Shown here: positions 7,205 to 23,544 of the stretch, piece by piece
How positions within the stretch are numbered: position 1 is the stretch's first letter
How the letters are laid out: the number at the start of each line of letters is the position of its first letter
NCBI RefSeq assembly: GCF_049818055.1
Contig: NZ_CP187479.1
Span: 902,088 to 926,087, forward strand
DNA: 24,000 nt
Origin: Desulforudis sp. Tu-874
GTDB lineage: Bacteria; Bacillota; Desulfotomaculia; Desulfotomaculales; JASEER01
Direction of reading: 5' to 3'
The notes under the pieces: generated by a model
Seen by the model: only the letters and a program-made list of their open reading frames with translations
What the model was told of the DNA's origin: nothing
Databases searched by the model: none
Position numbers and translations under genes: made by a program

Positions 7205-7274
7205 TATCCTTCATCCAACAATGAGTTACAAGTTTGGTGCCTAGCACCATGTGTTCTTAATTCTTTCCGTCAGT

Positions 7275-7655
7275 TTACGGCCAAGCAATAGGTAAAGATG
7301 CGTTGGTAAGTGTCGTTCCACCAACCGTCCCGCTAACCTGACCCCGAAGAGGAGTACCACCCACTGTATACGTTGCAGTTCCCGGCCCTGCGGGTACAGC
7401 TTGTAAGTATGTGGGAACTAAGGCATTTATATCGGTCGGGTTAGTTCCATTATTAGCAGCCTGGAATTGCATGATCGCACCATCAATCGTCCTTAGGTTG
7501 GCCTCTACAGCCCTTCGTTCTGCTGTTTGTGATACGTTGTTATAAACAGGCACAGCAATAGCCACCAGGATGCCGATGATGACCACGACGATCATCAGTT
7601 CGACCAGGGTGAAGCCCTTACGGTTCTTGAGGAGATGGCAAAGTCTTGTAAACAT
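7275..7655 (-). CDS. pilA: type IV pilin, probably the major pilin (126-aa precursor)
   Basis: MFTRLCHLLKNRKG|FTLVELMIVVVIIGILVAIAVPVY carries the class III signal. Strong RBS GGGAGGTGA. It has its own upstream region and is followed by a hairpin. The C-terminus is Gly/Thr-rich. Confidence 0.85.
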   Translation of the reverse strand: MFTRLCHLLKNRKGFTLVELMIVVVIIGILVAIAVPVYNNVSQTAERRAVEANLRTIDGAIMQFQAANNGTNPTDINALVPTYLQAVPAGPGTATYTVGGTPLRGQVSGTVGGTTLTNASLPIAWP

Positions 7656-7747
7656 CGTTTCACCTCCCTTCCCTCTTCTTGGGAATTCATGCCATCTTTT
7701 GTCTTCCTATATGTGGTTATACCGTCATACACGTAACCCTAGACACT

Positions 7748-7774
7748 GTTTCGGAACATTTTAGTCAAACTTTA
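7748..7774 (-). promoter_or_regulatory. candidate sigma-28/FliA-type promoter upstream of pilA
   Basis: The minus strand reads TAAAGTTT (7774-7767), then 11 nt, then tCCGAAAc (7755-7748). The E. coli FliA consensus is TAAAGTTT-N11-GCCGATAA. The -35 element is exact and the -10 matches 5 of 8. Confidence 0.35.
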
Positions 7775-7812: not shown

Positions 7813-9042
7813 TCACTCTTGCACTTGCTCTTCCTCCTGTACGGTAATCGGCTGGGCGCTACCTATCAGTTGCAGATAATCCGCAACGCGCTTAACGTTA
7901 TCAGGCGACTCCTCCACCCACATGACGTACTCGTCCTTTTCTCCGGGCATCAGGTCGGACGATATGTTAAAGCTGCTTGTCGGGATGCCGGTTAAGTCAC
8001 TGAGCAGCTTACGGTAGTTATAGATCAACTGGTAATTGTCGCTCTTGGCCACCGGTATCCGTACCTTGGCCCGCTCCTGGTCAAGCCGGTTCAACGCGCC
8101 GCGCACCTGGGTTTCCATATGGGACGGACAGATGACCAGCAGTTCTCTTCCGAACTCGGGATAGCTGAACGTGATCGTCTTCACCATTGACCCGCCGCTG
8201 CTCGCTGATGCCCCGGCACCGCTGCTTGCCCCCGTCGCTCCGGCGGTTCCCGCCAGGGAGCTCAGAAGAGAATCAGCGGCATCAGCAGGGCCTGACTCTT
8301 CACTGATAAAGGTCCCTAATCTTTCCGCCGCGTCGCGGGCGACGATGTTCTTTAACTGGTAGACAAACACCGACTGCGTGGCCGGTTTGCCCGACACGTC
8401 AACCCCCGGGATGTCGACGGCATTGACCAGCTCGCGCACCTTCTGCAGGGCTTGCGCTGAACCTTGCGCCCACAGTATGCCCGGGTGGGTTTCCACAGTG
8501 ACGGCCTTGGCCGGGATACCAAGCTGTCCGATCAGGGATTTGACCTTTTCCGCCGGAATATAGACGAGGTCGAACCGTGTTAGATGCATCTGCGCGAAGA
8601 AGTTCCTGTCCAGGTCTTCCTGCTTGCCGACGACGATGATGTTCCCGTCCTGGATATAGGATAGGCCTTCCCTTTGCACGAGCAGTTCCAGGGCGCGGCG
8701 TGCAGTGACGCCCTCGGCCTTGAAGTTCACCTTTACCGGATCGGCGGCGAGGATGACGCTGCTCCCCATCTTCAGTGCCAGCGCCGAGAGGACATCGCGG
8801 ATATCGGCCCCGCGAACCTCAATGGTGACTCCCCCTCCGCCAGGAGAAGAAGACAGCGGCGTTATTCCGTCGTCGATAGACAGGGCTGCCGTGGGCCTGC
8901 TGTCGGCGGCCGCGATGCTTGGGATACCCCCGAAAACAAGACAGGCCGCTACTACCAGCGACACCGCCGGTATGCGCATTCCGGACCGGAAGACCCTTTT
9001 TACGCCATATAATACCGTGTCTCTACCGATCATTCCTTGCAC
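7813..9042 (-). CDS. secretin N-domain (N0/N1-like) protein lacking a C-terminal secretin pore domain
   Basis: A signal/TM segment (MRIPAVSLVVAACLVFGGIPSIAAA) is followed by an N0-like segment (VRGADIRDVLSALALKMGSSVILAADP...ALELLVQREGLSYIQDGNIIVVG). Two Secretin_N-like repeats follow, and the second is split by an S/G/A-rich insert. I recognised no secretin beta-barrel motif. Start is GTG 9042 or ATG 9033. Confidence 0.6.
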   Translation of the reverse strand: MQGMIGRDTVLYGVKRVFRSGMRIPAVSLVVAACLVFGGIPSIAAADSRPTAALSIDDGITPLSSSPGGGGVTIEVRGADIRDVLSALALKMGSSVILAADPVKVNFKAEGVTARRALELLVQREGLSYIQDGNIIVVGKQEDLDRNFFAQMHLTRFDLVYIPAEKVKSLIGQLGIPAKAVTVETHPGILWAQGSAQALQKVRELVNAVDIPGVDVSGKPATQSVFVYQLKNIVARDAAERLGTFISEESGPADAADSLLSSLAGTAGATGASSGAGASASSGGSMVKTITFSYPEFGRELLVICPSHMETQVRGALNRLDQERAKVRIPVAKSDNYQLIYNYRKLLSDLTGIPTSSFNISSDLMPGEKDEYVMWVEESPDNVKRVADYLQLIGSAQPITVQEEEQVQE

Positions 9043-9052
9043 TTCCCTTCCC

Positions 9053-9592
9053 CTACCGCGTCGACTTGGCGGTGTCGCTTATACTGGCTCTACCGTTGAG
9101 TTTCAGGCGCATTTCACGGTCACCCGCCTTAAGAACAACTTCCCGTTCCTTGATCTCCTCCACCGTCCAGGTCTCGGCAACCGTAGAGCCTTTCTCGGCA
9201 ATATAAGCCATGCCGCCGATTTCGATGATCGCCAGGTTCTGCCCGTTTTTGTCCAGGATAACCCCCCGGAGCAAAGCCCCGGCGAAGGGATCAATCACGT
9301 CCCCCTGGCCGGCCGATAACTTATCCCCGGGCTTCTCGTCCAGGGTGCGCTGTGTCTGCGGCAGGGTGGTTACTTGCTTTTCGCCGGCAGCAATATCTTT
9401 TGCCGCCTGCTGGATAGCGGCATCCTGCGCGCCCCCCTTGGTAAGGCGGGTAACAAGGGCATAGGACACAATGGCAAGGATGATCAGGACAAGCAGCAAC
9501 CCGCCCACAACCAGCTTTTCCCTGTGCGCCGTCGCCCACTGCCGTACCCGCTCCCGGTCGAAGCTCATCCCCTTTGGTGTTTCCTCAGCCAC
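9053..9592 (-). CDS. PilP-like (GspC HR-domain-like) pilus assembly protein, bitopic
   Basis: One N-terminal TM helix. The C-terminus LRGVILDKNGQNLAIIEIGGMAYIAEKGSTVAETWTVEEIKEREVVLKAGDREMRLKL matches the PilP beta-sandwich pattern. Its position after pilO fits. GTG start with a GGTGGAG RBS. Confidence 0.55.
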   Translation of the reverse strand: MAEETPKGMSFDRERVRQWATAHREKLVVGGLLLVLIILAIVSYALVTRLTKGGAQDAAIQQAAKDIAAGEKQVTTLPQTQRTLDEKPGDKLSAGQGDVIDPFAGALLRGVILDKNGQNLAIIEIGGMAYIAEKGSTVAETWTVEEIKEREVVLKAGDREMRLKLNGRASISDTAKSTR

Positions 9593-9642: not shown

Positions 9643-10170
9643 CTACTGCTGTCCAGCGTAAAAAGCGCTGGCGGCAATGTCAGCCCTTATTTCGGATGAG
9701 TCCTCGTTCAACCGGGCGAGTTTCAGCTCCTCGATGCGTACCGCTCTGGGACCGTCCCGCAGGCCGGCAAGCAAATCAAGCACCTCCGAGTACCGTCCTT
9801 CAAGAGCCAGTTTGAAGGGCATCTCGACGTAACCTTGCCCGGTAACGCGTTCCTCAAAACGGACTTGTCTAAGGCATAAGCCGGCGGCCTCGGCGGCCGC
9901 TTGCAGATCGGCGAGAAGGACATCCTCGTCAGGCTCCGCAGGCATCATCCGCTCCAGCCGGTTCAACTGCTCCTGCACGCCGACAGCGTCTGCTTTCATT
10001 TTGATCAACTGCTGCACCCGGGTCTGATCGCGGGCCAGCGCCATGCGTTCTTCCGTAACGGCGTCCCGCGCCGCCCGCAACGCCCCGAACTGGAGGTAAA
10101 GCAGGAAAAGCATTAAGATTAACGCGATTACTCCGAGGATTACAAGAAAAAGATTGCTGTTAATACGCAC
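9643..10170 (-). CDS. pilO: type IV pilus assembly protein PilO
   Basis: N-terminal TM helix, a coiled-coil segment, then a ferredoxin-like C-terminus (FKLALEGRYSEVLDLLAGL...). Position after pilN. GTG start with a weak RBS. Confidence 0.75.
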   Translation of the reverse strand: MRINSNLFLVILGVIALILMLFLLYLQFGALRAARDAVTEERMALARDQTRVQQLIKMKADAVGVQEQLNRLERMMPAEPDEDVLLADLQAAAEAAGLCLRQVRFEERVTGQGYVEMPFKLALEGRYSEVLDLLAGLRDGPRAVRIEELKLARLNEDSSEIRADIAASAFYAGQQ

Positions 10171-10187
10171 AGAGGGCTGGCTGATTG

Positions 10188-10859
10188 CTAATCCCCTCCT
10201 TGTACAGGCTGGAACGGCTGACCGGAAAGAACCGCCGCCTTGATTTCAAACTGGACCATGGCGTCCCCGTGAAGGTTTTCCGTAGAGGTAAACCGGCACC
10301 TGACATCGGTAAGCCCGGGCACATCACGTAAAGCATCCAGCCAGGCGGCAACGGCCGTGTGCTCGAATGTCCACCCGCGGATAACAACTTCGCTCACAGC
10401 GGCGGATTGAGCGGCGGTTTTGTTCCCGCCCGCGCTTTGTCCTTGCCCGGACTGGCCTTGTGTTGCCTGGACCTGAGCATTCTTGTCTTTTTTCTCTACT
10501 TTCCAGTCAGTTAACCAGACGGAACCGGGGATCTGCCGCCCTATGTCGGCCATGATCCTTGTCCAATCAGGCGGGGAACCGACCGCTTCGCGGACCAGAC
10601 CCTCGGTCCGGGTCATCCGGTCCCGCATGTCGGCATACTGCTGGTAAGCTGCGGCTTCCTGTTGAACCTTGCGCCGCTCCTCTTGAAGCCGTGCCGCCTC
10701 TCCCCGTGCCTGGACGGTAGCGGCTATCAACGCGGCGTAAAACGCCAGGAAAACCAGGAGTACCGTCCCGCTCACAAGGATGGTTAGATTACGTCTTCGG
10801 CGTGCACGCAACTGCGTAGCAATTTCCGGCGGCAGAAGGTTGATCCTGACCTGGCTCAC
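10188..10859 (-). CDS. pilN: type IV pilus assembly protein PilN
   Basis: The conserved N-terminus INLLPPE (the PilM-binding peptide) is followed by a TM helix and a coiled coil. GTG 10859 has GGAGGG 6 nt upstream and overlaps the pilM stop (GTGA). The 10898 start is probably an extension. Confidence 0.8.
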   Translation of the reverse strand: MSQVRINLLPPEIATQLRARRRRNLTILVSGTVLLVFLAFYAALIAATVQARGEAARLQEERRKVQQEAAAYQQYADMRDRMTRTEGLVREAVGSPPDWTRIMADIGRQIPGSVWLTDWKVEKKDKNAQVQATQGQSGQGQSAGGNKTAAQSAAVSEVVIRGWTFEHTAVAAWLDALRDVPGLTDVRCRFTSTENLHGDAMVQFEIKAAVLSGQPFQPVQGGD

Positions 10860-11893
10860 TTCGCGCCCTCCAATCCTCGTCTGGCCAGACCGATGCACAC
10901 GGCGAAGTCCAACACCTCGCGCGTGATGTCCTCACAGCCCGGCTGTACGGTGATTCCTTCGAGAGGGCGCACCTTCTCGACGCGCAAGTCCAGGCGTTCG
11001 GCCATAAACTCGGCAAGACCGGCAAGCCTGGCGCCTCGCCCGCTGATGATGATTCTCTCGACATCGGCCGAGCCCGGTTGCGCGAGATAATAGCCGATGG
11101 AAGATTGGATCTCGCCCGCTACGTTGTTACACCAGGCACGCAGTTTTTCCTTATGCCGTTGCCGAGCCGTTTGCTGTTCATCTTCCGCCCCTGTCCCCAC
11201 GGGTTCGACGTCGGCAAGGAGAAAGCCAAAGCTTTTGACCGCGTCCTGGAGGCTTATCGGAACCAGCCGCGCAAACCGCGGCACCCCGTCCGCGGCGATC
11301 AGGATGTGGCTGAGGCCGTTCCCGACGTCCACCAGGGCGACCGTGCCCCGGCGTTCGTTCGTCATCGCCGCGTTGACCAGGGCCAGGGGAGCCGCGTCTA
11401 TAGCCGTAACGTTCAGCCGCGCGCCGGAAAGGGCCTCCAGGAAAGGCTGGAGCATGTCCCGCCTGGCGGCCACGAGCAGGACTTCCAGAAGCCGACCGTG
11501 CCCCCCGGTGGTTTGACCCACGACGGCGAAATCCAGCACGGCCTGGTTCAAAGGGATGGGCAGGTAGTCCTGCGCCTGGTAACGGATCAACTGGGCCAGC
11601 TTGTTCTCCGGCACTTTGGGCACAGTACCCAGGCGGATGAGCACGCCCTGGTTGGCTATCCCCAGGACGACATCGCGGCTGCCTATCCCGGCCGCAGTCC
11701 ACAGCTTTTCCAGGGCTGTAGCCACGGCCTTGGGGTCGGTTACAGCGCCCTCGACGACCGCGCCATCCGGGAGTTCCTGGCGTCCCCAGGCCGCCAGGCG
11801 CGGGGCGCGGGGAGTACCGCGCAGTTCAACGGCGCGCACCTCGCCGGCGTCCAACTCCAGTCCTACCGCACCGGCCGGCTTAAAAAAGCCCAT
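10856..11893 (-). CDS. pilM: type IV pilus assembly ATPase-fold protein PilM
   Basis: Actin/FtsA-like fold signatures (GLELDAGEVRAVEL..., VALVDVGNGLSHI, IIISGRGARLAGL). ATG 11893 (MGFFKP...) avoids overlapping the upstream gene. Confidence 0.85.
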   Translation of the reverse strand: MGFFKPAGAVGLELDAGEVRAVELRGTPRAPRLAAWGRQELPDGAVVEGAVTDPKAVATALEKLWTAAGIGSRDVVLGIANQGVLIRLGTVPKVPENKLAQLIRYQAQDYLPIPLNQAVLDFAVVGQTTGGHGRLLEVLLVAARRDMLQPFLEALSGARLNVTAIDAAPLALVNAAMTNERRGTVALVDVGNGLSHILIAADGVPRFARLVPISLQDAVKSFGFLLADVEPVGTGAEDEQQTARQRHKEKLRAWCNNVAGEIQSSIGYYLAQPGSADVERIIISGRGARLAGLAEFMAERLDLRVEKVRPLEGITVQPGCEDITREVLDFAVCIGLARRGLEGAK

Positions 11894-11949
11894 CTTCTCC
11901 CACCACTCTCCCCTGCTGCACCGGGAGTCAGTGTCCCGGTATTGATTTC

Positions 11950-13383
11950 TTAAGGATTCGCTATTTCTTTCCAACTAACGATTTCCCAACCCGCGTTAAC
12001 AGGTTGCAGAAAATGCGGCGGCGTGTCGTAGGCCATGCGCGGGTCGTGGCGGTAGTTCTTGTTGTAACCGGTCAGCCGGGTTCCCGTCAACGAGAAGAAG
12101 GTACCAACCGCGCCGCGGAATTGTTGTGTAATCGAACCTACCAGGGTGATGGTTCCCCTTGCCGGCCCCTCATCCCACTCTTCATACTCCCAGGAAGGGT
12201 TTAGGGCGAAAAGGGCACCGTGAATCGTTACGTTCTGCGGCGAAACGTCGCCGGCCAAACCCGCCAGCACATCGTAATAGGGCCATGTTGACGTCGGCCA
12301 GTAATAGTGCAGCAGACGAATCCGCCCGTTGGCGACCAGCCCGAGCATGTCGTCGGTAATCCCGCCGTTCGGGTCGAAGTCGTCGTTGGCGTAGCGAAGG
12401 CCGCCCGTCGAACCGGCGGTAAGGTAGTTGAAATTCGTTGGGTTCTTGTGCGTAATGTAAATATTATTGGCCGCGGCAATGGTCAGGCGGCCGTCCAGCG
12501 TGCCCGAAACAAAGACATTGCCTCTGCTGAGGTTCCACTTGTCAGTTCTGCTCTCGTCGGGGTTGCTTGTACCGTCCACGTAGATCACCCCGTTTGGCGG
12601 CAGCGGGCGAGTCACCGCGCTGCCGGTACCGTTTCGGATAGTAACCTGGTTGCCGTTAAGCAGGATGCACGTCCGGCCGTTGTAATAATAACCGTTGTAT
12701 TGCGCCTGTGTTTTAAGCTGGCTGTTTGATGGGGGAAAGGTCAGCGGCGCCACTTTTTGGGGAGGGCCTTCCTCGTAGAATGGGTTGCTGCCCGCACGGA
12801 CATCCAGGTTAACGGAATAGGTTACCGGACCATGAAAAATCGGATCGCCGTCGATATGTAAGGTGCCGTTGGTATGCAAAGGGCCGAAAACCTCATCGCC
12901 GGTAATCCACCAGACCGTTTGCCCGGAAGACATGGTCTCCTCCCCGGAAAGGTAAATGGTTTGCACAAACTGGCGCTTACGGACCGTTATCTCAACACTG
13001 CGCCTGTTTGTTGGATCGCTGGCCGGCCAGCCCGTCGAGCGGATAGTGACCACCGGCTCTTCAGTGGTCGGGGGATCAACCTGCAGGCGGTAAAATCCGT
13101 CCTGAAACGGCGTATCCACGTTTAAACGGGCGTCGTCAGCAGTCTTGTCGACTTCCGGAACCTCGTAATACTTGGAATCCTTGTTAAGATGCCAAAGGTA
13201 TTTGTTCAACCCGGCCTCCGCGAAGTAGATGGCCCTTTCGCTGTCGGAACTACGGCGCCCCATGGTGGCCTGACTCTCAACAAGAAAAGCCGCGGTAAAA
13301 CCCAGGAGGGAAATAATGGCAATAATCATTACCACTATGGGTACAGCGATTCCGTGTTCCTGGCACAAGAGACGTCGCATCAT
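11950..13383 (-). CDS. GspK/PilX-like large pilus-associated protein (477 aa)
   Basis: The N-terminus QEHGIAVPIVVMIIAIISLLGFTA resembles the PilX_N/GspK type, with a hydrophobic helix after (E/Q)xG and no Glu at +5. The large C-terminal part has repetitive beta-strand motifs. The ATGA overlap with the preceding minor pilin gene implies coupling. Confidence 0.6.
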   Translation of the reverse strand: MMRRLLCQEHGIAVPIVVMIIAIISLLGFTAAFLVESQATMGRRSSDSERAIYFAEAGLNKYLWHLNKDSKYYEVPEVDKTADDARLNVDTPFQDGFYRLQVDPPTTEEPVVTIRSTGWPASDPTNRRSVEITVRKRQFVQTIYLSGEETMSSGQTVWWITGDEVFGPLHTNGTLHIDGDPIFHGPVTYSVNLDVRAGSNPFYEEGPPQKVAPLTFPPSNSQLKTQAQYNGYYYNGRTCILLNGNQVTIRNGTGSAVTRPLPPNGVIYVDGTSNPDESRTDKWNLSRGNVFVSGTLDGRLTIAAANNIYITHKNPTNFNYLTAGSTGGLRYANDDFDPNGGITDDMLGLVANGRIRLLHYYWPTSTWPYYDVLAGLAGDVSPQNVTIHGALFALNPSWEYEEWDEGPARGTITLVGSITQQFRGAVGTFFSLTGTRLTGYNKNYRHDPRMAYDTPPHFLQPVNAGWEIVSWKEIANP

Positions 13384-13988
13384 GAGGCATTCCCCCTGCT
13401 GCGTACGCTGATGGTGGCCTGAACCGCCAACGGCTGGGCAAGCGGTGTGGCGGCATCATTAACCAGCAGATTAACAAGTACCTTCATGCGCGGAGGGTTG
13501 CTGGCGTCAACAGTAAAGAGAGGATCACCGGCTCCGTTAACCACAGTCGTGACCACAGTCTCATAGGCCGTTGGCGCCGCGTAGGAATACGGGTATGCGC
13601 TGCCCTGCGGGGCGCTGACCCCCCGCTCAAGCCTCCCGTCCACGAGACGGTACCTGACCAGCTCCGGCCTACCATCGCCGCTGACGTCGGTATAAACGTC
13701 GAGCTGCGTGTTGCCGGCAGAAACAGCCACCGCGGTTCCACCATTGGTCGCAACCCGTGCCTGGTGGACCTCGCGGTTAAGGACGTCAATAAAAAGACGG
13801 GCCTCCTGCACGGCGCGCGCCTCGGCTGAAGCACGGTTCCAACTCTTATAGCCGTAATCGAAATACATATAAATAACGCCAATAGTCATGCTTAGCAGGG
13901 CGAGCACAACCAGCAGTTCGACCAGCGTAATACCCCTCTTATTTCTGAATGTATCCTCCAACCGAAACCAGACGGCCGTTCCATTCAC
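13380..13988 (-). CDS. minor pilin (prepilin-type N-terminal cleavage/methylation domain protein)
   Basis: ...FRNKRG|ITLVELLVVLALLSMTIGVIYMYF carries the class III signal with Glu at +5. 202 aa. Confidence 0.75.
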   Translation of the reverse strand: MNGTAVWFRLEDTFRNKRGITLVELLVVLALLSMTIGVIYMYFDYGYKSWNRASAEARAVQEARLFIDVLNREVHQARVATNGGTAVAVSAGNTQLDVYTDVSGDGRPELVRYRLVDGRLERGVSAPQGSAYPYSYAAPTAYETVVTTVVNGAGDPLFTVDASNPPRMKVLVNLLVNDAATPLAQPLAVQATISVRSRGNAS

Positions 13989-14047
13989 TGAACTCTCACA
14001 TCCATTTGTGCTGCGTTTCCATTCGCCGGGCCGTCGTACATCACTCG

Positions 14048-15751
14048 CTAAAATGGCAGGTTGGTATACGTAACCACGTATTGACCCGAGACGACATTGA
14101 CCTCTCTCCTATCCATCCAGACTCCCCCGAACCACCTATATACTTCATAAAGACCGGGATCGAGGTTGTCGAAAAGCGCTTCGCCGTCTGCGCCGGTATG
14201 CTGTACTTGATTGTACCCGTTTGGTCCCACGACCTTTACACGGATGTTCTTTGGTTTCCCGTTGGACTTCTCGGCGCGGACCAGGATACTCCGAAATTCC
14301 GGTTGCAAGACGACATGGTATGTCTCCACCACGCCCGCGTCCGTCCACTGTTGACCGCCGGTGACCCAAAAAGCGCCGTGCTCGGGACCGAAGGGTAGGT
14401 ATCCCGGAGCGGTAACCTTAACACAGTACCGGCTGTACTGGTACCCTTCCACCGGAATCAGGGGGGGCGAGCATGGGTTGTTCTCCTCCAGGACGAAACC
14501 AGCAAGCCCGTCTTTAGTCGTCTGAGTAGAGGCCACTGGGCTAGAAGAGCAAACGCCGGTCCATAAACCTAAGTGGTAGGTATAGGTGTGTCGGTAGATC
14601 TCCACGAGAGCGCCCGCCACCGGCATTCCTGATCCTTGGGAGGTTACCGTGACACTGGCGTTTGCTCGTATCAGTTCCAGGATAAGGCTCTTCGTCTGGC
14701 CGGGTTCATCGAAAGTACCGTCCCAAACCGCCTCATGCTTAGGCAGTAGCACATAAGGAATATAGCCGTCCGCTGTTACCGTCAGGTTATAGGGTGTTCC
14801 TAGGTAACCGTCACCGACCGGCCAGAGGTCGCCCAGGAAATCCTTGGGCAAGACGCCCCCCATTTCGGCGGTGAAGTTCTTGCTGATCGTGCCGGTTTCC
14901 GGCGTTTCAAGAACCAGCGTACCTGGGACATTGATCAGGTTCCCTGTCGAAGCGTCTCGCAGTTCGATCTCCAGGTGGCATGGGAACTCTATTTCGAAAA
15001 GACGCTCGACAGTGACTCCACTGGTGACCTCGGCCGTTTGCTGAGCCTGCGCGGGGTGAACCATCATTCCCTGATCGCTTGGGTCGACTTGAACAGTGTA
15101 GCTTCCCTCATCGAGGACGGCAAAGAGGACCTGGCCAACCTCGTCGGTCCAGTTCGTCTGGGGCGCATCGGGTCCGGCCGAAAGTTCGGCGCGGATGTTC
15201 TCTACCGGGACGTCTACGCCCGGGGTCGTACGCCATCCCCGCAAGACCTGCACGCGGATGTTGCCCCCCGGGAAGGCCTCCTCCTCACCCTCCAAGGAAA
15301 CCAGGGTGTGGATTTCCGTAGTCTGAACCACTTCCCCCGTAAAGACGCTCGGAGCGCTTACACTGACTCTCACCCGCTTGTAATCATAGGGGATAGGATC
15401 GGTCCCGCTCGAATCGTCAGCCGGATCGTTTACCCACCAGATCCTGGTCTGAACTGTATAATTGACCCCCCCGACCGTGACCGTCGTCGTCGGCTGAATA
15501 TTCCCTGAAGGGTTACCCCCTGCGAGACCCACCTGACTGTAAGGCAGGGCACGGATATCTTCAATTATATTGGCCGCCAGCTTGGTGGCGACGAGCCGCG
15601 CGCGGTTGGCCTGCGAGCCCTCGCTGATGTAGACGAAGAGAGGGACAAAGGCCACCGTAACAACGGTTAAGAGCGTCAGTGCGACGAGCACTTCCACCAG
15701 GGTAAAGCCCCGGCGGTCGGCCAGTTTGTCAATTGACAAGCGTCTCGTCAT
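14048..15751 (-). CDS. PilV-like giant minor pilin with repeated carboxypeptidase-regulatory-like (Ig-like) modules
   Basis: MTRRLSIDKLADRRG|FTLVEVLVALTLLTVV carries the class III signal. The C-terminal roughly 450 aa has several stretches of the pattern G-x-V-x-D..G..L..A.V.. / ..DG.F.F..L..G.Y.V. Examples are WTDEVGQVLFAVLDEGSYTVQV, VTSQGSGMPVAGALVEIY and HTGADGEALFDNLDPGLYEVY. Confidence 0.75.
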   Translation of the reverse strand: MTRRLSIDKLADRRGFTLVEVLVALTLLTVVTVAFVPLFVYISEGSQANRARLVATKLAANIIEDIRALPYSQVGLAGGNPSGNIQPTTTVTVGGVNYTVQTRIWWVNDPADDSSGTDPIPYDYKRVRVSVSAPSVFTGEVVQTTEIHTLVSLEGEEEAFPGGNIRVQVLRGWRTTPGVDVPVENIRAELSAGPDAPQTNWTDEVGQVLFAVLDEGSYTVQVDPSDQGMMVHPAQAQQTAEVTSGVTVERLFEIEFPCHLEIELRDASTGNLINVPGTLVLETPETGTISKNFTAEMGGVLPKDFLGDLWPVGDGYLGTPYNLTVTADGYIPYVLLPKHEAVWDGTFDEPGQTKSLILELIRANASVTVTSQGSGMPVAGALVEIYRHTYTYHLGLWTGVCSSSPVASTQTTKDGLAGFVLEENNPCSPPLIPVEGYQYSRYCVKVTAPGYLPFGPEHGAFWVTGGQQWTDAGVVETYHVVLQPEFRSILVRAEKSNGKPKNIRVKVVGPNGYNQVQHTGADGEALFDNLDPGLYEVYRWFGGVWMDRREVNVVSGQYVVTYTNLPF

Positions 15752-15772: not shown

Positions 15773-16489
15773 TCAGGACAAGGCCGCGGCCATTTGGCTG
15801 AGACTTTTGTTCAGTATCCGCGACACCTTGCGCTGGCTGATGCCCAGTTTCCTGGAGGCTTCGGTTTGCGTCAGGTCACGGTAAAAGACCAGGTAGATCA
15901 CCTTACGTTGCAGATCGCCGAGTCGCGCCAGCGCCTGCCGGACGGCGATGACGTCTTCGATGGGCAAGCGGAAGCTTTCGTACCGCAGGTTCTTAATCCG
16001 GGACAGGTCCATCTCGTCCAGCGAAACGATACCGGCACGCAGCGCCTCGAGCACGCCGTCCTCCCGGACATTGACGGCGGCCGCGATCTCGCTGATCGAC
16101 GGAGGTTCTCCGGTCCGCTGCAGCAGTTCGTCCGCCGCGGCATGGATGCGCGCCTGCAGTTCGGCCACCCAGCCCGGCCGGCCGAAGGCGGCCTCGCGCC
16201 GCAGGTGGTGGCGGATCTCTCCGGCGATGCAGTGCGCGGCGTAGGTTGCGAACTTAACGCCCTTCCCTGGATCGAACCGTCGTACGGCCTTCAGCAGGCC
16301 CTCGTAGCCGGCCTGGATCACGTCCTCGCCGGGACGGTCGCCGACGTGCAGCCGCGCGAAGTGCTCGATCAAGCGGCGACCCGCCTGCATCACAGCCACC
16401 AAATCCTGCTCCTTGCCTGTCTCCAGGTATGCTCTCATACTATCTTCCAAGTTTGGAACTCCGCCGCCTGTTGCGCTGTTAGAATACAC
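15773..16489 (-). CDS. sigma-70 family RNA polymerase sigma factor, group 3 (SigB/F/G-FliA clade)
   Basis: Region 2 (DVIQAGYEGLLKAVRRFDPGKGVKFATYAAHCIAGEIRHHLR), a region 3 segment, and a region 4 HTH (LTQTEASRKLGISQRKVSRIL). The GTG start lies 2 nt after the pilC stop, with GGGAGG inside the pilC 3' end. Confidence 0.85.
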   Translation of the reverse strand: MYSNSATGGGVPNLEDSMRAYLETGKEQDLVAVMQAGRRLIEHFARLHVGDRPGEDVIQAGYEGLLKAVRRFDPGKGVKFATYAAHCIAGEIRHHLRREAAFGRPGWVAELQARIHAAADELLQRTGEPPSISEIAAAVNVREDGVLEALRAGIVSLDEMDLSRIKNLRYESFRLPIEDVIAVRQALARLGDLQRKVIYLVFYRDLTQTEASRKLGISQRKVSRILNKSLSQMAAALS

Positions 16490-16491
16490 TA

Positions 16492-17703
16492 CTACCTCCC
16501 GATCTGCGTAACGACAGTGAAAATGGGCAAGTACATCGAAATAATAATGCCGCCGATAATACAGCCGATAATGATAATCAAAACGGGTTCGACAAGGGCG
16601 ACGAGTCCGCGCGCCATCGCCGCGACCTCGGCCTCGTAAAACTCCGCGATCCTGTTGAGTAACAAGGCCAGCGAGCCCGTCTCCTCACCGACGGCCACCA
16701 TCTGGGTGACCATGGGCGGAAATACGCCGCTCTCTTCCAGCGGGCCGGCGATGGTCTTGCCTTCCTGGATCTTTTCGGCGGCCAGTTCCACCACCTCGAC
16801 GATCACCGCGTTGCCCGAAGCGGGCCCGGCGGCCGCGAGGGCCTGCAGCACCGGGATACCGCCCGAAAGCAGGGTGGAAAAGGTACGGGCGAATCGCGCG
16901 ATGACGGTGCGCTGGAAAAGCGGGCCCATAACCGGGAGTTTAAGCTTTAAACGGTCCCAAGACCGCCGTCCGGCGGGGCTGTGCACGTAGAAACGCGCGC
17001 TAAAGAAGACCGCGGCAAGAACAGCAAACCACAGGTACCAGAAATGTCTTAAGGAATCGGAAACACTCATCAGTACCCTTGTCGGCAGGGGCAGGACCGC
17101 GCCGGCCGGAAAAAACTTGACGAATATCGGGACGATAAAAAACATCATACCCATCACGACCAGGCCGGCGAAGCAGAGCACCACCATCGGGTAAAAGGTG
17201 GCCGAACGAATGCTGTCCCGCAATTGCTTGTCGCGTTCGAGCTGCTCGGAAAGCCGGCGCAGGATTTCCTCCAGGGAGCCCCCGACCTCTCCGGCGCGCA
17301 CCATATCGGTATATAACGCCGGGAAGATGTCCGGGTAGCCGCGCAGCGCGTCCGAAAATCCCATCCCGGCTTCGACGTTGCGCGCTGTCTCAGCCACCGC
17401 CCGGGCCAGCGTCGGGTTCGTAACCTGCTTGCTCAAGGTATTCAGGCAACGGGTCAGCGGAATGCCCGCATCCAGCATGGCGGCCAGCTGCCTGCTGAAG
17501 AGGCTCAACTCCCCGATGTTCACATTGCGGCGAAAGGTGAAAAACTGGCGGATAGCCGATTCCTTTACCGGGGTTACATCCACGACGGTGTACCCTTGCC
17601 TGCGCAGGCGGGCAGCAACAGCGAACTCGTGCTCGGCATCCATCCGTCCGGTCACCGTATTGCCGGTACGGTCGATAATCTGGTAGGCGAAAAGCCCCAT
17701 CAT
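16492..17703 (-). CDS. pilC: type IV pilus platform protein PilC (GspF family)
   Basis: Two T2SSF repeats and three TM segments, at the typical length. Candidate starts are clustered (TTG 17706, ATG 17703, ATG 17700). Confidence 0.9.
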   Translation of the reverse strand: MMGLFAYQIIDRTGNTVTGRMDAEHEFAVAARLRRQGYTVVDVTPVKESAIRQFFTFRRNVNIGELSLFSRQLAAMLDAGIPLTRCLNTLSKQVTNPTLARAVAETARNVEAGMGFSDALRGYPDIFPALYTDMVRAGEVGGSLEEILRRLSEQLERDKQLRDSIRSATFYPMVVLCFAGLVVMGMMFFIVPIFVKFFPAGAVLPLPTRVLMSVSDSLRHFWYLWFAVLAAVFFSARFYVHSPAGRRSWDRLKLKLPVMGPLFQRTVIARFARTFSTLLSGGIPVLQALAAAGPASGNAVIVEVVELAAEKIQEGKTIAGPLEESGVFPPMVTQMVAVGEETGSLALLLNRIAEFYEAEVAAMARGLVALVEPVLIIIIGCIIGGIIISMYLPIFTVVTQIGR

Positions 17704-17721
17704 CAACCCCCGTTTCCTGAA

Positions 17722-18855
17722 TTAGAACCAGTTCTTGGCCTGCAGGCCGTTACGATCAGCCGCGCCGGTAAAGCCTTGCTGTAGCAGGCGCTCCAATTCC
17801 ACGCGGTCCACGCAGCGCAGCAGGGCGGTCTCCCGCGTGATCAAGCCGCGCTGGCAAAGATCGGCCAGAGACTGGTCCATCGTGCACATGCCCATCGCCC
17901 GGGCGGTCTGCATGGCCGTATAGAGCTGGTGTTCCTTGCTCTCGCGGATCAGGTTGCGCACCGCCGGCGTGGCCAGCATAAGTTCAACGGCCACCACCCG
18001 GCCGGAGCCGTCGGCAGTCGGCAAAAGCTGCTGCGCGATGACACCCTGCAGGCAGTCGGCGAGTTGCTGCCGGACCTGGTTCTGCATATACTCCGGAAAC
18101 ACGTCGACGATGCGGTGGATGGCCAGCGGCGCCGTCTGGGTGTGCAGCGTGGACAGCACCAGGTGGCCGGTCTCGGCGGCCGTAAGGGCGATGGCGATGC
18201 TCTCCAGGTCGCGCATTTCTCCGATCAGGATTACGTCGGGGTCGTGGCGCAGTACGTGGCGCAAAGCGTTGGCGAAGGAATGGGTGTCGGTGCCGACCTC
18301 ACGCTGCTTGACGATGCTCTTTTTATGGCTGTGCAAAAACTCGATCGGCTGTTCGATGGTGACGATGTTGAGGCTGCGCTCTCTGTTGATCAGGTTGACC
18401 ATAGCCGCCAGCGTAGTCGATTTGCCGCTGCCGGTGGGTCCGGTGACCAGCACGAGGCCCCGCGGGAGGAAACACAGGTCCCGGACGGCCGCGGGCAGAC
18501 GCAGGTCTTCGAGATCGGGAACAAACGTCGGCACCACGCGAAAGGCCACGGCCAGGGTCCCGCGCTGGCGCATGATGTTCCCCCGGAAGCGGCTTACCCC
18601 CGGTATTGAATAAGAGAAGTCCAGTTCCCATTCCTCTTCGAGCTGTTTACGATGGGTGGGGTCCAGGATGGGCATCACGAGATTGGTAATGTCCGCCGGC
18701 GTCAACGGGCGAAAGTCCAGGGGCACGAGTTCGCCGAAGACCCTGGCGATCGGCGGGGAACCCGCCGTGAGGTGCAGATCGGAGCCCTTGCGGTGCACCG
18801 TCTCGATCAGGATCTGGTCCATGCTGAGCACTTCCTTGCCGCCATCGCCGCTCAT
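17722..18855 (-). CDS. pilT: type IV pilus retraction ATPase PilT
   Basis: Walker A GPTGSGKST, Asp/His boxes and the PilT-type AVRNLIRE motif. ATG 18855 overlaps the pilB stop (ATGA) and has a GAGGGTGA RBS. The 498-aa ORF-track form is an upstream extension into pilB. Confidence 0.9.
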   Translation of the reverse strand: MSGDGGKEVLSMDQILIETVHRKGSDLHLTAGSPPIARVFGELVPLDFRPLTPADITNLVMPILDPTHRKQLEEEWELDFSYSIPGVSRFRGNIMRQRGTLAVAFRVVPTFVPDLEDLRLPAAVRDLCFLPRGLVLVTGPTGSGKSTTLAAMVNLINRERSLNIVTIEQPIEFLHSHKKSIVKQREVGTDTHSFANALRHVLRHDPDVILIGEMRDLESIAIALTAAETGHLVLSTLHTQTAPLAIHRIVDVFPEYMQNQVRQQLADCLQGVIAQQLLPTADGSGRVVAVELMLATPAVRNLIRESKEHQLYTAMQTARAMGMCTMDQSLADLCQRGLITRETALLRCVDRVELERLLQQGFTGAADRNGLQAKNWF

Positions 18856-20540
18856 ACGATCACCCTCATTATTTCTTCCAGCGACGTTATACCCTGCTTG
18901 ACCTTTAGCATTCCGTCCCGGCGCAGCGTGACCATGCCCTCGCTGATCGCCTGGTCCTTGATCTCCGAGGCCGAACGCCTCTGCAGGGTTAAGCGCCGGA
19001 TCGGTTCGGTAACGCGCAGCAATTCGTAAACGCCGGTGCGTCCCTTGTATCCCGTCCTGCTGCACCGCAAGCAACCTTTGGGGCGGTATAGGCGGACCGG
19101 TCCGCCGGCGGGGTCTGCCGGAAAATCGGGGATATTCGCCAGTTCCTCCGGGCTTAAGCTGTACTCTTCCTTGCAGTTGGGGCACAGCTTGCGCACCAGC
19201 CGCTGTGCCAGAACACAAACGAGCGATGACGCCGTAAGGAAGGGTTCGATCCCCATGTCCGACAGGCGGGTAATTGCTCCCGCGGCATCGTTGGTGTGTA
19301 GCGTCGACAGCACCAGGTGGCCGGTGAGGGCCGACTCCACGGCGATCCGCGCCGTTTCCTGGTCGCGGATCTCGCCGATCATCACGATATCCGGGTCGCT
19401 CCGCAAGATGGAGCGCAGCCCGTTGGCAAAGGTCAGTCCCGCCTTGGGGTTAACCTGTATCTGGTTCAGCCCGTCGAGCCGGTACTCCACCGGGTCCTCG
19501 ACCGTGATGATGTTCTTCTCCACGGAATTCAGTGCCGCCAGCGCGGCGTACAGCGTCGTGCTCTTGCCGCTTCCGGTGGGTCCCGTCACCAGGATGAACC
19601 CGTAAGGCAGGCGCAAAAACTCTTCGAAGGCCCCGAGGACCTGGCGGGAAAAACCCAGTTTCTCCAAAGTTATCAGCTTGGCCGAGCGGTCGAGGAGACG
19701 CAGGGTCAGCTTCTCGCCGTAGGCCGCCGGCAGCGAAGCGACCCGGACGTCCACGGTCTTGCCTTCGATCCTCAGCGTCATCCGCCCGTCCTGCGGGACG
19801 CGGCGGTCGGCGATGTCCATATTGGCCAGGACCTTGATGCGCGACACCAGCGCCGGGTGAAGCCTGCGCGGCGGCTGCATTATGTCGTGCAGCACGCCGT
19901 CCAGGCGGAAACGTACGCGCATGGACTTCTCCTGCGGGTCGATGTGGATGTCGCTCGCCCCGGCGTTTACGGCCTGGCTGAAAATCAGGTTGGCCAGGCT
20001 GACGGCGGGCTTGTCCGCGGACTCCTCGGGACCGGTGACGATTTCCGGCGCCTGCTGTTCGTCCTCGGGTGCCGTTTCGACATCGGAGTTGGTGCGGCTG
20101 AAGCGGTCGATCGCCGACTCCAGCTCGCTGTCCGGAACAACCACCGGCTGGATTTCGTATCCCGTCAGTATCCGCAGGTCGTCCAGGGCGATCACGTCGG
20201 TGGGGCGCATCATCGCCACCACCAGCCGCCCGTTGTCGAAACCGATGGGCAGGGCGCGGTAACGGCGGGCAACCTCGGGGGAAACCAGGCTCATGGCCGC
20301 CGAATCGATAGTATACGACTCCAAGCTGACAAAAGGCACGCCGGCCCGTTCGGCCATGACCCGCGCGATGTCGTCCTCGCTGCAATACCCCAGCTTGACC
20401 AGCGTACGGCCCAGGAGGCCCTTGTCACCATCCCTGATAACCTGGCTCTTAAGCGCCTCCTCAAGCTGATCCTGCGTAATAATGCCGGCCTCAACCAGCT
20501 TGGTCCCCAGGAAATTACGGCTCGGCTGAAGTTTCGCCAT
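18852..20540 (-). CDS. pilB: type IV pilus assembly ATPase PilB (GspE family) with an MshEN-like N-terminal domain
   Basis: T2SSE N-domain (LVEAGIITQDQLEEALKSQ), Walker A GPTGSGKSTT, and a tetracysteine motif CPNC...CLRC. AAGGTGA RBS. Confidence 0.9.
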   Translation of the reverse strand: MAKLQPSRNFLGTKLVEAGIITQDQLEEALKSQVIRDGDKGLLGRTLVKLGYCSEDDIARVMAERAGVPFVSLESYTIDSAAMSLVSPEVARRYRALPIGFDNGRLVVAMMRPTDVIALDDLRILTGYEIQPVVVPDSELESAIDRFSRTNSDVETAPEDEQQAPEIVTGPEESADKPAVSLANLIFSQAVNAGASDIHIDPQEKSMRVRFRLDGVLHDIMQPPRRLHPALVSRIKVLANMDIADRRVPQDGRMTLRIEGKTVDVRVASLPAAYGEKLTLRLLDRSAKLITLEKLGFSRQVLGAFEEFLRLPYGFILVTGPTGSGKSTTLYAALAALNSVEKNIITVEDPVEYRLDGLNQIQVNPKAGLTFANGLRSILRSDPDIVMIGEIRDQETARIAVESALTGHLVLSTLHTNDAAGAITRLSDMGIEPFLTASSLVCVLAQRLVRKLCPNCKEEYSLSPEELANIPDFPADPAGGPVRLYRPKGCLRCSRTGYKGRTGVYELLRVTEPIRRLTLQRRSASEIKDQAISEGMVTLRRDGMLKVKQGITSLEEIMRVIV

Positions 20541-20770
20541 CAGATCACCTTATCGTTAATATCCCGGACTATAAGTAATTTCGGCAGAAACCTACTGGCG
20601 GTAAATATATGCCAGACGGAAAAGCTATCCTTTCGACAATTAATCTAACAATACATGAAATTTATATATTAATTGCTAAATTTATTATAATTGTGCATGA
20701 AAAGAGCCGCCACCCTTTAGTGAAAATAAACCCCTTTCGTACCTCTCGGCGGATCTTTCTTGACACAAGG
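20541..20770 (-). promoter_or_regulatory. AT-rich upstream/leader region of the pilB operon (promoter not pinpointed)
   Basis: The base composition drops sharply to AT-rich. Several TATAAT-like hexamers are present (TATAAT, TAATAT). An 8-bp inverted repeat CAATTAAT/ATTAATTG sits at 20637-20644 and 20668-20675. Confidence 0.35.
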
Positions 20771-20771
20771 C

Positions 20772-20806
20772 AAACAAAAAAACCGGCCTAAAATCTGAGG
20801 CCGGTT
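20772..20806 (-). terminator. rho-independent terminator ending the peptidase-sortase operon
   Basis: On the minus strand, AACCGGCCU-CAGAUUUU-AGGCCGGUU is followed by a U-tract (UUUUUGUUUG). Confidence 0.7.
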
Positions 20807-20821
20807 GCATAATCATGGCTG

Positions 20822-21475
20822 CTAATTCTCAACCAACTTGGCCCTTACAGCCAGGCGGTTTTCCTTGCCCGATTTGTGACACGTCGTTAACGTCAACGCC
20901 GAATAATCAGTTGGCTGGATAACACTCCAATCATTAGCGGCTATCACCTTGACAAACTCGACCTCGTACACAAAACGTTCGGTACCCTTCTTAATGAGGA
21001 TCCGGTCACCGGCAACCAGCCGGTCTATCTTGCGAAATCACGAACCGTACATGTTCCTATGTGCCGCGACCGCTGTGTTTCCCTCTCCGGGCATCGCCGA
21101 GTGCTCATACCATCCCGGTCCCCTGCTCAGCACGTATGATGTCGTTCCCTTCGCAACGGCTGCTTTCAGCCCTATCTTAGGGATCTCTATTACGAATACC
21201 GCCGGTAAAGGAGGCGGCGGAGGAGCCGGCGCTGGTTTCTTCTCCTCCCCCTTTGGTTCGCCGTCACCAACGACAGGGTTTTCCGTAAGCCCGGTTTCTT
21301 GCCGGACGCTGCCTGCTACACCAGGCACCAGCTCGACTGACTCCATCCGCTCCAGGGCGTGCCGCTGGTAAAGCCAGGCGCGGACATCGGTAAAAAAAGG
21401 GTAAAGCATCAGCAATACCCCCGCTGTCATCAATAAACCGCTGAGAACGATAACCAGCATTCTTTTTCCGGACAT
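20822..21475 (-). pseudogene. sortase (class D/E-like) interrupted by a single in-frame TGA at 21038-21040
   Basis: The N-terminal part (to 21041) has the TM anchor and the His motif (NTAVAAHRNMYGS). The same frame continues after TGA as FRKIDRLVAGDRILIKKGTERFVYEVEFV...SALTLTTCHKSGKENRLAVRAKLVEN. That part carries the TLxTC Cys and the conserved Arg. ATG 21475 has GGAGAG 5 nt upstream. Confidence 0.75.
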
Positions 21476-21552
21476 CTCAACTCTCCAGACTTTCAAGTCC
21501 AAAAGGGGCAATTATTCCTGGCAAGTATTTCTGCACGCAACTCAGTCAAACC

Positions 21553-22092
21553 TTACGCGGGAAGTGGCAGGGTTATGAAATAAGCCGAAACCGTGCCCAG
21601 GAAAATGGCAATGCCGTAAGGAACGGCCAGGCGGTCTTTCGCCTTGACCTCTTCGTTCGGGAGCATCACGTCGTAGCCGATCTTCCCCCTGGTGTAGACA
21701 AACAGTTTTACCCCTACAAGAAAATCGTTCAGGCGTTTGAAGCGCTTGCTGACGATGAGAGCAAGTAAAGCCACTGCTCCGCCCCAGAGAGCGGTCAACA
21801 GCACCGCCGAAAGAATAAATCCGGTCCCCTTGAGCGCGCCGATGGCGCCTAAAAGCTTGACGTCTCCCCCGCCGAGGCCGCCAAGGGCAAACGGAATAAA
21901 AAGAATCAACAGGCCGATCAGCAGCCCCTTGGCACTTAAAAGCAAACCGGGCCAACTCCCGAGGACCCCGTTAATAACCAAACCGGCCGCCATTCCCGAC
22001 AGGGTCAGCCAGTTCGGAATACGGTTTGTGCGCAAATCCCAGGCCAGGCCGATGCCGACCAGCAGGATAACAAGCACGTCGATCATCGTCAA
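21553..22092 (-). CDS. A24-family prepilin peptidase, short CpaA/TadV-like form without an N-methyltransferase domain
   Basis: 179 aa and polytopic. The two catalytic Asp contexts are AWDLRTNRIPN and GGGDVKLLGAIG. There is no cytoplasmic Cys-rich methyltransferase region. GAGGA RBS. Confidence 0.85.
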   Translation of the reverse strand: MTMIDVLVILLVGIGLAWDLRTNRIPNWLTLSGMAAGLVINGVLGSWPGLLLSAKGLLIGLLILFIPFALGGLGGGDVKLLGAIGALKGTGFILSAVLLTALWGGAVALLALIVSKRFKRLNDFLVGVKLFVYTRGKIGYDVMLPNEEVKAKDRLAVPYGIAIFLGTVSAYFITLPLPA

Positions 22093-22603: not shown

Positions 22604-23485
22604 CTAATAGACAGCGTAGCTGTCGACCAGGTAGGTTTTAGCAAAGAGCTCGGCGTTGTCATAGTACCGATCCCCCGTTTTGCGCACGAACTTGCCGTCT
22701 TTCACGTATCCTGCGTCCCACGTGGTGTCCATGGGCACCCAGCGGCCGTCGACCTTAATCTCGTTCCAGGCGTGAAACTGGCGTTCCCAGGAATCGCTCC
22801 CGGCCTGCCCGTAAACCACGCGTGCCTCCAGTCCGGCCGCGCGGGCCAACGCCGCGGTCAGGAAGGCGTACCCGCTGCAGACCCCCTGGCGCGCCTCGAG
22901 CGTGCTGCTTGCGGGAGACAGGCTCAAATCCTTGGAAGCAAGACGGCCGGTATCATAGCCGATGTTGGCGGCAACCCAATCGTGGATCGCCCTGGCCTTT
23001 TCCGCGCTCGTTTTGGAACCTGCCGTAACGGCGGCCGCAAGTTTCACGATGTTCTGATCGGCTGAATCAATATAAGCGGAGGGAGCAAGATACCTGTTAT
23101 CCTCCCCGGCCTTGTTGATGACCTGAAACCTGACGGTGCCGTCAAACTTCCGCGGGTTGTCCCCTGCCCAGATCGTGTAAATACCCTGGCCGAAACGAAG
23201 GCTGATCGTCCGTGTGAAGCTTCCCTCTTCGGGATCAACCGGGTAGGTCTCGATCTCGCCGCCGGGACCTCTTACCGCCAGCCATAGCTGCTGTAAATCG
23301 GTCTTACCGGTAACCGTCAGGTCGCCGCTCAACTCCGTCAGGTTCCGGCTCGGGGAAGTGATTTCGATAGCCGCAGATTTAAAGCCGACAGAGTACGCCG
23401 CATCGGCTGCTCCCGGAATGATAACGCAGCAGATGCAAGTCACTAAGACCAAAAGCCAAAAAGCACTCTCGCGGCTGACTCTCAT
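22604..23485 (-). CDS. secreted transglutaminase-like (Cys-His-Asp core) protein
   Basis: Signal peptide MRVSRESAFWLLVLVTCICCVIIPGAADA. Transglutaminase core residues QGVCSGYAFL ... FHAWNEI ... MDTTWD. ATG 23485 is preferred because the 23557 extension would run through the leader terminator. Confidence 0.8.
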   Translation of the reverse strand: MRVSRESAFWLLVLVTCICCVIIPGAADAAYSVGFKSAAIEITSPSRNLTELSGDLTVTGKTDLQQLWLAVRGPGGEIETYPVDPEEGSFTRTISLRFGQGIYTIWAGDNPRKFDGTVRFQVINKAGEDNRYLAPSAYIDSADQNIVKLAAAVTAGSKTSAEKARAIHDWVAANIGYDTGRLASKDLSLSPASSTLEARQGVCSGYAFLTAALARAAGLEARVVYGQAGSDSWERQFHAWNEIKVDGRWVPMDTTWDAGYVKDGKFVRKTGDRYYDNAELFAKTYLVDSYAVY

Positions 23486-23498
23486 CAAGATTCCCCCG

Positions 23499-23538
23499 AA
23501 CAATAAAGAAGCCTGCTCGCCAATTGACGTGCAGGCTT
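23499..23538 (-). terminator. intrinsic terminator (expression platform of the GEMM-I leader)
   Basis: On the minus strand, AAGCCUGC-(14 nt)-GCAGGCUU is followed by CUUUAUUGUU. It ends about 14 nt before the ATG at 23485. Confidence 0.6.
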
Positions 23539-23544
23539 TGAACA

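Follow-up and report, generated by a model that had tools for sequence, protein, structure and literature searches.

A putative pilus-dedicated sigma factor in the type IV pilus operon of Desulforudis sp. Tu-874 and its candidate promoter upstream of pilA

The pilus operon and its sigma factor gene

The 24,000-nt stretch of the Desulforudis sp. Tu-874 genome analysed here (hereafter the window, in whose coordinates positions are given) carries a cluster of type IV pilus genes with a gene for an alternative sigma factor in its midst; this protein and a candidate promoter for it upstream of the major pilin gene, pilA, are the subject of this report. The pilus genes of the window are all encoded by the minus strand. 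In 5' to 3' order along it, genes for a transglutaminase-like protein, an A24 prepilin peptidase and a sortase-like protein are followed by pilB, pilT, pilC and the sigma gene, and these by genes encoding a 567-amino acid (aa) minor pilin, a second pilin-like protein, a PilX-like protein, PilM, PilN, PilO, a T2SSC/PilP-like protein and a protein with a Secretin_N domain only. A 157-nt gap then precedes pilA and a second pilin gene (Table 1).

The open reading frame (ORF) of the sigma gene matches Pfam Sigma70_r2 (8e-15), r3 (2e-8) and r4 (2e-12), all above the respective cut-offs, and the make-up of its product (regions 2, 3 and 4 in ~240 aa) is that of a group-3 sigma factor, a group without region 1.1. 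An earlier reading of this DNA from its letters alone (the original prediction) had described a complete sigma factor between pilC and the minor-pilin genes, with which the Pfam matches and ORF positions agree. It had also placed the GTG start 2 nt past the pilC stop and the GGGAGG ribosome-binding site inside pilC, and the sequence bears it out on both counts: the TAG stop of pilC occupies 16492-16494 on the minus strand and is followed by 2 nt and then by the GTG. Homologues, whose alignment begins at residues 12-14 and which have the N-terminal L14-E15 in common, favour this start over an ATG at codon 18. Tight spacing is kept across related loci, the gap between the pilC stop and the sigma start having a median of 5 nt and being no longer than 15 nt in 36 of 45 loci, and a Shine-Dalgarno sequence within pilC is the usual arrangement. 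The gene encodes a complete group-3 factor and is translationally coupled to pilC, as had been proposed. On its other side, the minor pilin gene begins 21 nt beyond the sigma stop.

A sigma factor family in the pilus clusters of anaerobic Firmicutes

Ranked against NCBIfam models, the window sigma scores highest with the SigB/SigF/SigG subfamily (TIGR02980), at 134.9 bits for a cut-off of 234.35. A second tier, at 91-107 bits against cut-offs of 261-372, holds sporulation SigF (TIGR02885; 106.5 bits, cut-off 321), cyanobacterial SigF (NF005644; 103.9 bits, cut-off 261), SigB (TIGR02941; 93.2 bits, cut-off 315), SigG (NF006071; 91.6 bits, cut-off 372) and actinobacterial SigF; the FliA/WhiG (SigD) model (TIGR02479) gives 86.6 bits for a cut-off of 189.6. 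The ranking is the same in the other 21 family members tested, with TIGR02980 the best-scoring family for all 22. Compared with solved structures, a profile of the family reaches 149 bits with SigF (1l0o_C) and 147 with SigB (8x6g_H), as against 101 with WhiG, 89 with SigA and 81 with FliA. The SigF and SigB matches span residues 8-236, a full-length alignment, at ~28-31% identity (~31% to SigF). In a neighbour-joining tree built with the structure references and Escherichia coli FliA, the pilus sigmas form one clade, sister to SigB and SigF, and FliA and WhiG form a separate branch. Because of these scores and this placement, the protein is neither an ordinary flagellar SigD nor, by curated criteria, a sporulation or stress sigma factor, and its original assignment to group 3 rather than to flagellar SigD stands. 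As judged from sequence, the family is a clade of its own within group 3, of SigB/SigF-like type.

The recognition-helix residues H86, R93, H94, Q219, R220, S223 and R224 are invariant throughout the family. A region 4.2 helix of 'SQxxxSR' type is common to the family and to SigB and SigF/SigG. Two features set the family apart from these factors, namely R220, in the helix that recognises the -35 element, and an invariant motif specific to the family, F173-x-L175-P176-x-E178-D179, in the linker between regions 3 and 4.

A protein search returned 225 relatives, all of them annotated only as 'sigma-70 family' or 'sigma-B factor'. Scanning one genome per species with 12 family sequences gave 145 relatives, from which 80 loci were kept; the comparison took in some 90 related loci overall. 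Pilus genes around the relatives were detected by tblastn with the pilus proteins of the window. In 77 of the 80 species genomes the sigma gene is part of a type IV pilus cluster; its immediate upstream neighbour is pilC in 54 loci, and its downstream neighbour is pilM in 35. The lineages spanned include Desulfotomaculia, Heliobacteria, Thermacetogenia, Syntrophomonadaceae, Oscillospiraceae, Halobacteroidaceae and Limnochordia, with Desulforudis, Desulfoscipio, Desulfotruncus, Sporotomaculum, Heliobacterium, Heliorestis, Heliobacillus, Syntrophaceticus, Thermacetogenium, Dethiobacter, Dehalobacter and Acidaminobacter among the genera, as well as a few metagenome-assembled genomes (MAGs) labelled Sumerlaeota and other phyla. 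Identity of the window sigma to family members ranges from 53 to 90%, the upper value being that of a Bacillota MAG (L001) which is collinear with the window over its whole pilus region; in a more distant subclade (P0099) the sigma gene also overlaps the end of pilC. A family member can be defined by a length of ~235-255 aa, a gene that stands in a type IV pilus cluster (as a rule immediately behind pilC) and the signatures H-C-I-x-G-E-I-R-H and F-x-L-P-I-E-D, all of which the window protein displays. The label 'orphan' given to the gene in the original prediction is therefore misleading, in that the gene belongs to a conserved family. By these sequence comparisons the family is widespread and the finding more general than was then proposed.

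A conserved promoter element upstream of pilA

Lining up the regions upstream of pilA in related loci brought out a conserved element, TGTCTAAA-N13/14-GGTATAAC. In its strict form, TGTCTR-N15/16-GGTATAA, it gives 55 matches in 54 of 81 loci, whereas 30 block shuffles yielded 0-1 apiece. Within 600 nt after 51 of 57 sites comes an ORF that encodes a prepilin signal (GFTLxE), and three more sites lie at contig ends. The window shares this mark of the family, the element standing at 7716-7745 upstream of the major pilin gene; no copy was found upstream of the second pilin ORF (6718-7221), or upstream of the sigma gene or its operon.

Several properties suggest that the element is a promoter, and one of an unusual kind. 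In loci with a riboswitch ahead of pilA, the motif stands ~50 nt before the aptamer, which is where a promoter is expected. The GG of the motif is invariant, and at -7, the final position of the -10 element, 45 of 54 sites have C in place of the T that sigma-A prefers; a sigma-70 promoter scan returned nothing upstream of pilA; and in Syntrophomonadaceae-type loci promoters of the canonical TTGACx-N17-xATAAT form serve the sigma gene, less than 1 kb from the pilA motif. The C at the end of the -10 element, the null scan and these different sigma-A promoters nearby argue against a sigma-A promoter at pilA. Read as GTCTAA-N14/15-GGTAT, the motif has the layout of a SigB-type promoter (GTTTAA-N12-14-GGGTAT), in keeping with SigF and SigB as the closest relatives of the protein, and the invariant recognition-helix residues match an invariant promoter.

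Pilus loci lacking the sigma gene provided a negative control. Among the contexts of PilC homologues of a sigma-bearing Oscillospiraceae locus, six (L205-L209 and L211) show a pilin gene after pilB-pilT-pilC and lack a sigma factor of the family; they belong to Geosporobacter ferrireducens, Tepidibacter hydrothermalis, Natronincola ferrireducens, Caloranaerobacter azorensis, Alkaliphilus pronyensis and, for L211, a Logan contig. The family motif occurs in none of the six. The pilin gene follows pilC by 32 nt in L211 and by 18 nt in L208. A further locus, L210, has the gene order of L211 (pilD-pilM-pilN-SLH-pilB-pilT-pilC) plus the sigma gene, and has TGTCTGAATCGGCCGGCCGCCGGTATAA in the 116 nt that separate the sigma gene from the pilin gene. 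Missing together in the six loci and present together in the matched L210, sigma and promoter thus appear and disappear jointly. An exact-motif scan of metagenome contigs gave 120 matches, of which ~100 are attributable to chance and 16 lie before pilins; all six loci in which pilC was within range of a match also carry the sigma gene, a count that is supportive, though not a control. In L207-L209, a sigma gene upstream of aroE was considered and set aside, the L207 copy being SigK/E-type pro-sigma-like and closer to SigA and SigF than to the pilus family.

We consider it likely, on comparative sequence evidence, that the window encodes an alternative sigma factor dedicated to the pilus, which is made with the machinery operon and reads its own promoter at pilA. 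The factor would be produced as part of the pilB-pilT-pilC operon through translational coupling to pilC and would direct RNA polymerase to the dedicated promoter TGTCTA-N15/16-GGTATAAC at 7716-7745, such that the abundant filament subunit would be transcribed only while its assembly machinery is expressed, in a feed-forward manner. We infer from the comparison both that the sigma factor reads this promoter and where transcription starts. Its regulon would probably be very small, and possibly consist of pilin promoters only. Our broader proposal, in which the window protein founds a family of sigma factors that are specific to pili, occur in anaerobic Firmicutes and were hitherto unrecognised, each paired with essentially one promoter and in some lineages forming a two-stage cascade controlled by cyclic di-GMP (c-di-GMP), seems to us evenly poised.

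A number of observations weigh against a pilus-dedicated factor. The sigma-less control is small, its six loci being drawn from another clade of Clostridia; three homologues of the sigma factor (L043, L059 and L074; 42-50% identity) lie outside pilus clusters and have no motif nearby; and no promoter driving the sigma factor's own operon was identified in the window. The TATAAC of the motif is also 17 nt from TGTCTA, the sigma-A optimum, and in one locus (L064, ~10790-10830) the pilA promoter is a variant, TTGACTAAA-N13-GGTATAAT, that fits the sigma-A consensus. These last two points would suit an alternative in which TGTCTAAA…GGTATAAC is read by sigma-A with unusual -35 contacts, or is a site for an activator or repressor that overlaps with a promoter of sigma-A, and the targets of the sigma factor are others, unlinked to it. 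Such an arrangement appears unlikely in view of the co-occurrence of motif and sigma gene and of the departures from sigma-A promoters described above. The L064 variant, which also fits the family motif with one mismatch, may be an evolutionary intermediate.

A role of the protein as a general stress or developmental sigma factor in the manner of SigB or SigF/SigG, having a large regulon and only incidentally located in the pilus operon, would agree with its best family matches and with the three homologues outside pilus clusters, which may be paralogues with other targets. We regard this as highly improbable, since the protein falls below every curated cut-off (SigBFG, SigF, SigB and SigG), its clade is monophyletic and distinct, and linkage to pilus genes across several classes cannot be incidental. 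The absence of linked partners speaks against it as well. The original prediction had reported no adjacent anti-sigma or anti-anti-sigma gene, and indeed no RsbW/SpoIIAB-like gene is found in the window. When all ORFs of at least 70 aa in 81 loci were clustered, no RsbW/SpoIIAB-, RsbV/SpoIIAA- or FlgM-like gene proved to be conserved across the 80 related neighbourhoods, whose conserved ORF clusters are pilus components plus aroK and aroE only. The adjacent kinase and anti-anti-sigma genes of SigB/SigF-type partner switching are thus lacking at the locus and in its counterparts. With no anti-sigma gene linked to it, the activity of a pilus-dedicated factor may be set purely by the amount made. 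A more speculative idea, modelled on the export of FlgM, is that the pilus machine itself gates this activity.

The original prediction had put forward other targets, namely two FliA-like promoters, TAAAGTTT-N11-12-CCGAxA, at pilA and at the transglutaminase-like gene. Both motifs are there, on the minus strand (7749-7774 and 23664-23690), and none arose in 100 shuffles, such that they are unexpected by chance; the copy at the transglutaminase-like gene is moreover kept in L001. The pilA copy, 4 nt downstream of which the conserved promoter begins, is already degenerate in L001 (CTGAAA), the closest relative, and no other locus has it upstream of pilA; it may be part of an A/T-rich upstream tract. 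A search with TAAA-N14-18-CCGAxA as the target motif yielded 55 scattered matches over 80 loci, none upstream of pilA. TAAA-N15/16-GCCGATAA is the classic FliA/SigD consensus and points to a separate flagellar-type sigma factor; being of this type, the promoter at 23664-23690 more likely belongs to another sigma factor and is probably not a target of the pilus sigma. With a protein that is SigB/F-like and groups apart from FliA and WhiG, it is scarcely credible that the two motifs are its promoters. The feed-forward circuit envisaged at the time, in which the machinery operon switches on the pilin, does fit the comparative data, albeit through the promoter at 7716-7745 and not through those proposed.

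Inputs, parallels and other features of the locus

In relatives, input to the sigma factor would come from c-di-GMP riboswitches upstream of its gene or operon. All ten loci of the pilB-sigma-pilA type have a canonical sigma-A promoter followed by a c-di-GMP-I riboswitch, the latter 150-230 nt upstream of the sigma gene. A second riboswitch lies in the pilA leader of at least five loci (L045, L046, L049, L050 and L054), ~50 nt after the motif in four of them. The resulting two-stage order of sigma-A promoter, c-di-GMP-I riboswitch, sigma gene, TGTCTAAA…GGTATAAC, often a second riboswitch, and pilA is seen in L045, L046, L048, L049, L052, L054, L056, L057, L058, L035 and L204. Desulfoscipio (L008) has a c-di-GMP-I riboswitch ahead of its pilB-pilT-pilC-sigma operon, and in L001 a sigma-A-like promoter and a c-di-GMP-II riboswitch (5421-5693 of that locus) lie upstream of pilB. 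A riboswitch at the corresponding place in the window was looked for with a permissive Rfam scan, which gave chance-level matches only; alignment with L001 indicates that a ~250-nt segment bearing the promoter and aptamer is missing from the window leader, where only the terminator-like hairpin is kept. The window does have a c-di-GMP-I riboswitch (RF01051) at 23550-23638 on the minus strand, scoring 76.9 bits for an Rfam gathering score of 35. It sits between the FliA/SigD-like promoter (TAAAGTTT-N12-GCCGATAA) and the transglutaminase-like gene, and L001 keeps both this promoter type and the riboswitch.

The functionally closest known system, by analogy, is cyanobacterial SigF. In Synechocystis, SigF recognises the pilA1 promoter through a -32 TAGGC and a -12 GGTAA and autoregulates (PMC2532724), and in Nostoc punctiforme its regulon is 'extremely limited', with pilA as the one stringent target (PMC6495340). 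Both cyanobacterial SigF and, as far as its proposed targeting goes, the pilus sigma are group-3 factors with the major pilin gene as main or only stringent target, in a near 1:1 relationship (PMC2532724, PMC6495340). They also share a GGTA core in the -10 element (GGTAA in Synechocystis, GGTATAAC for the pilus sigma), and the NF005644 model ranks near the top of the families scored for each of the 22 members tested. The pilus sigma nonetheless falls below the cut-off of that model, which makes SigF a functional analogue only; its -35 element is TGTCTAAA instead of TAGGC; a machinery-operon location and coupling to pilC are not reported for SigF in the two studies (PMC2532724, PMC6495340); and, whereas SigF of Synechocystis autoregulates (PMC2532724), the motif was not found upstream of the pilus sigma or its operon.

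Among Firmicutes factors, SigB and SigF/SigG (TIGR02980) are closest in sequence and structure and have a similar promoter layout in SigB, but the pilus sigma scores below their cut-offs, has no linked partner-switching genes and has its own invariant linker motif and R220. In terms of gene arrangement, the nearest parallel is flagellar. Bacillus subtilis sigD lies in the fla/che operon and, as with FliA generally, a sigma factor encoded in the operon of the machine turns on the separately transcribed flagellin gene. SigD and FliA-FlgM thus resemble the pilus sigma, as its role is proposed here, in that a gene embedded in an assembly-machine operon activates that of the filament subunit; they differ in clade, promoter and appendage, and no FlgM-like anti-sigma gene is linked to the pilus sigma. 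Control of pilA in Pseudomonas, Geobacter and Myxococcus is by sigma-54 with PilS-PilR, and Clostridioides difficile has a c-di-GMP-II riboswitch upstream of pilA1. In these systems too the major pilin is transcribed apart from the machinery, via a specialised promoter or a c-di-GMP leader, whereas the specialised factor proposed here is an operon-encoded group-3 protein of the sigma-70 family and, in contrast to C. difficile, the riboswitch of some relatives controls the sigma gene itself. A survey of Gram-positive type IV pili makes no mention of sigma factors (PMC3244431), and our literature search, whose coverage left out most subscription journals, found no published description of a pilus-operon sigma factor in Firmicutes.

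Regulation of type IV pili is poorly understood in Gram-positive anaerobes such as syntrophs, heliobacteria, deep-subsurface Desulforudis and dehalorespirers. If the proposal is correct, a dedicated sigma factor and a sharp promoter would tie pilin synthesis to machinery expression and c-di-GMP, several hundred proteins now labelled only 'sigma-70 family' would gain a name and a rule, and a compact, probably orthogonal sigma-promoter pair would become available for genetic tools in Clostridia. The parallels with cyanobacterial SigF and flagellar SigD suggest that very abundant filament subunits repeatedly acquire a sigma factor of their own.

Table 1. Coordinates of features of the pilus locus in the window.
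Feature	Position	Strand	Evidence or remark
Sigma factor gene of the pilus operon, 238 aa, GTG start	15773..16489	-	Pfam region 2, 3 and 4 matches; family alignment
GTG start codon of the sigma gene	16487-16489	-	2 nt after pilC stop
GGGAGG Shine-Dalgarno sequence of the sigma gene	16495..16500	-	Last sense codons of pilC; 5-nt spacer to GTG
Predicted -35 element of the pilA promoter, TGTCTA	7740..7745	-	
Predicted -10 element of the pilA promoter, GGTATAAC	7716..7723	-	16-nt spacer from TGTCTA; 60 nt before pilA ATG
pilA, major pilin candidate, inferred sigma target	7275..7655	-	Pfam N_methyl 4e-10; orthologues follow the motif in related loci
Second pilin gene	6718-7221	-	
pilC, T2SSF platform protein	16492..17706	-	Pfam T2SSF 2.5e-64; public gene call starts at 17700
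pilT	17722-18855	-	Gene call; 4-nt overlap with pilB
pilB	18852-20540	-	Pfam T2SSE and MshEN (pilB and pilT together); gene call; with pilT, at the start of the sigma-bearing operon
Leader upstream of pilB	20541..20830	-	Terminator-like hairpin at 20781-20806
Large minor pilin gene, 567 aa, CarboxypepD_reg/SdrD_B-like domains	14048-15751	-	Pfam N_methyl prepilin motif
Pilin-like gene	13380-13988	-	Same operon, downstream of the sigma gene
PilX-like gene	11950-13383	-	Pfam PilX_N
Operon genes 3' of the sigma gene through pilM, pilN and pilO	9643..15751	-	Pfam N_methyl, PilX_N, PilM_2, PilN, PilO
A24 prepilin peptidase gene	21553-22092	-	
Transglutaminase-like gene	22604-23557	-	
TAAAGTTT-N12-CCGAAA upstream of pilA	7749..7774	-	Not conserved
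TAAAGTTT-N12-(G)CCGATAA	23664..23690	-	FliA/SigD-like; kept in L001; upstream of c-di-GMP-I riboswitch

Other genes of the cluster showed features of their own. The 409-aa Secretin_N protein (within 7813-9592, minus strand) has a weak STN match and no secretin C-domain, and adjoins the T2SSC/PilP-like protein; the two are kept in 27 and 24 related loci, respectively, although the lineages concerned are usually held to have a single membrane. The longest frame of the second pilin ORF has its prepilin motif only from residue 67 onwards, and the true start is probably internal. The sortase-domain gene (20829-21511, minus strand) is interrupted by an in-frame TGA at 21038-21040, where L001 has TGG (Trp); both halves still match Pfam Sortase, and the TGA may reflect either a variant due to sequencing or a nonsense mutation. 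Near the end of the pilin genes, beside a region with no clear gene (6375-6644), lie IS21-type genes for an rve/Mu-transposase-like transposase and IstB (4102-6143, minus strand).

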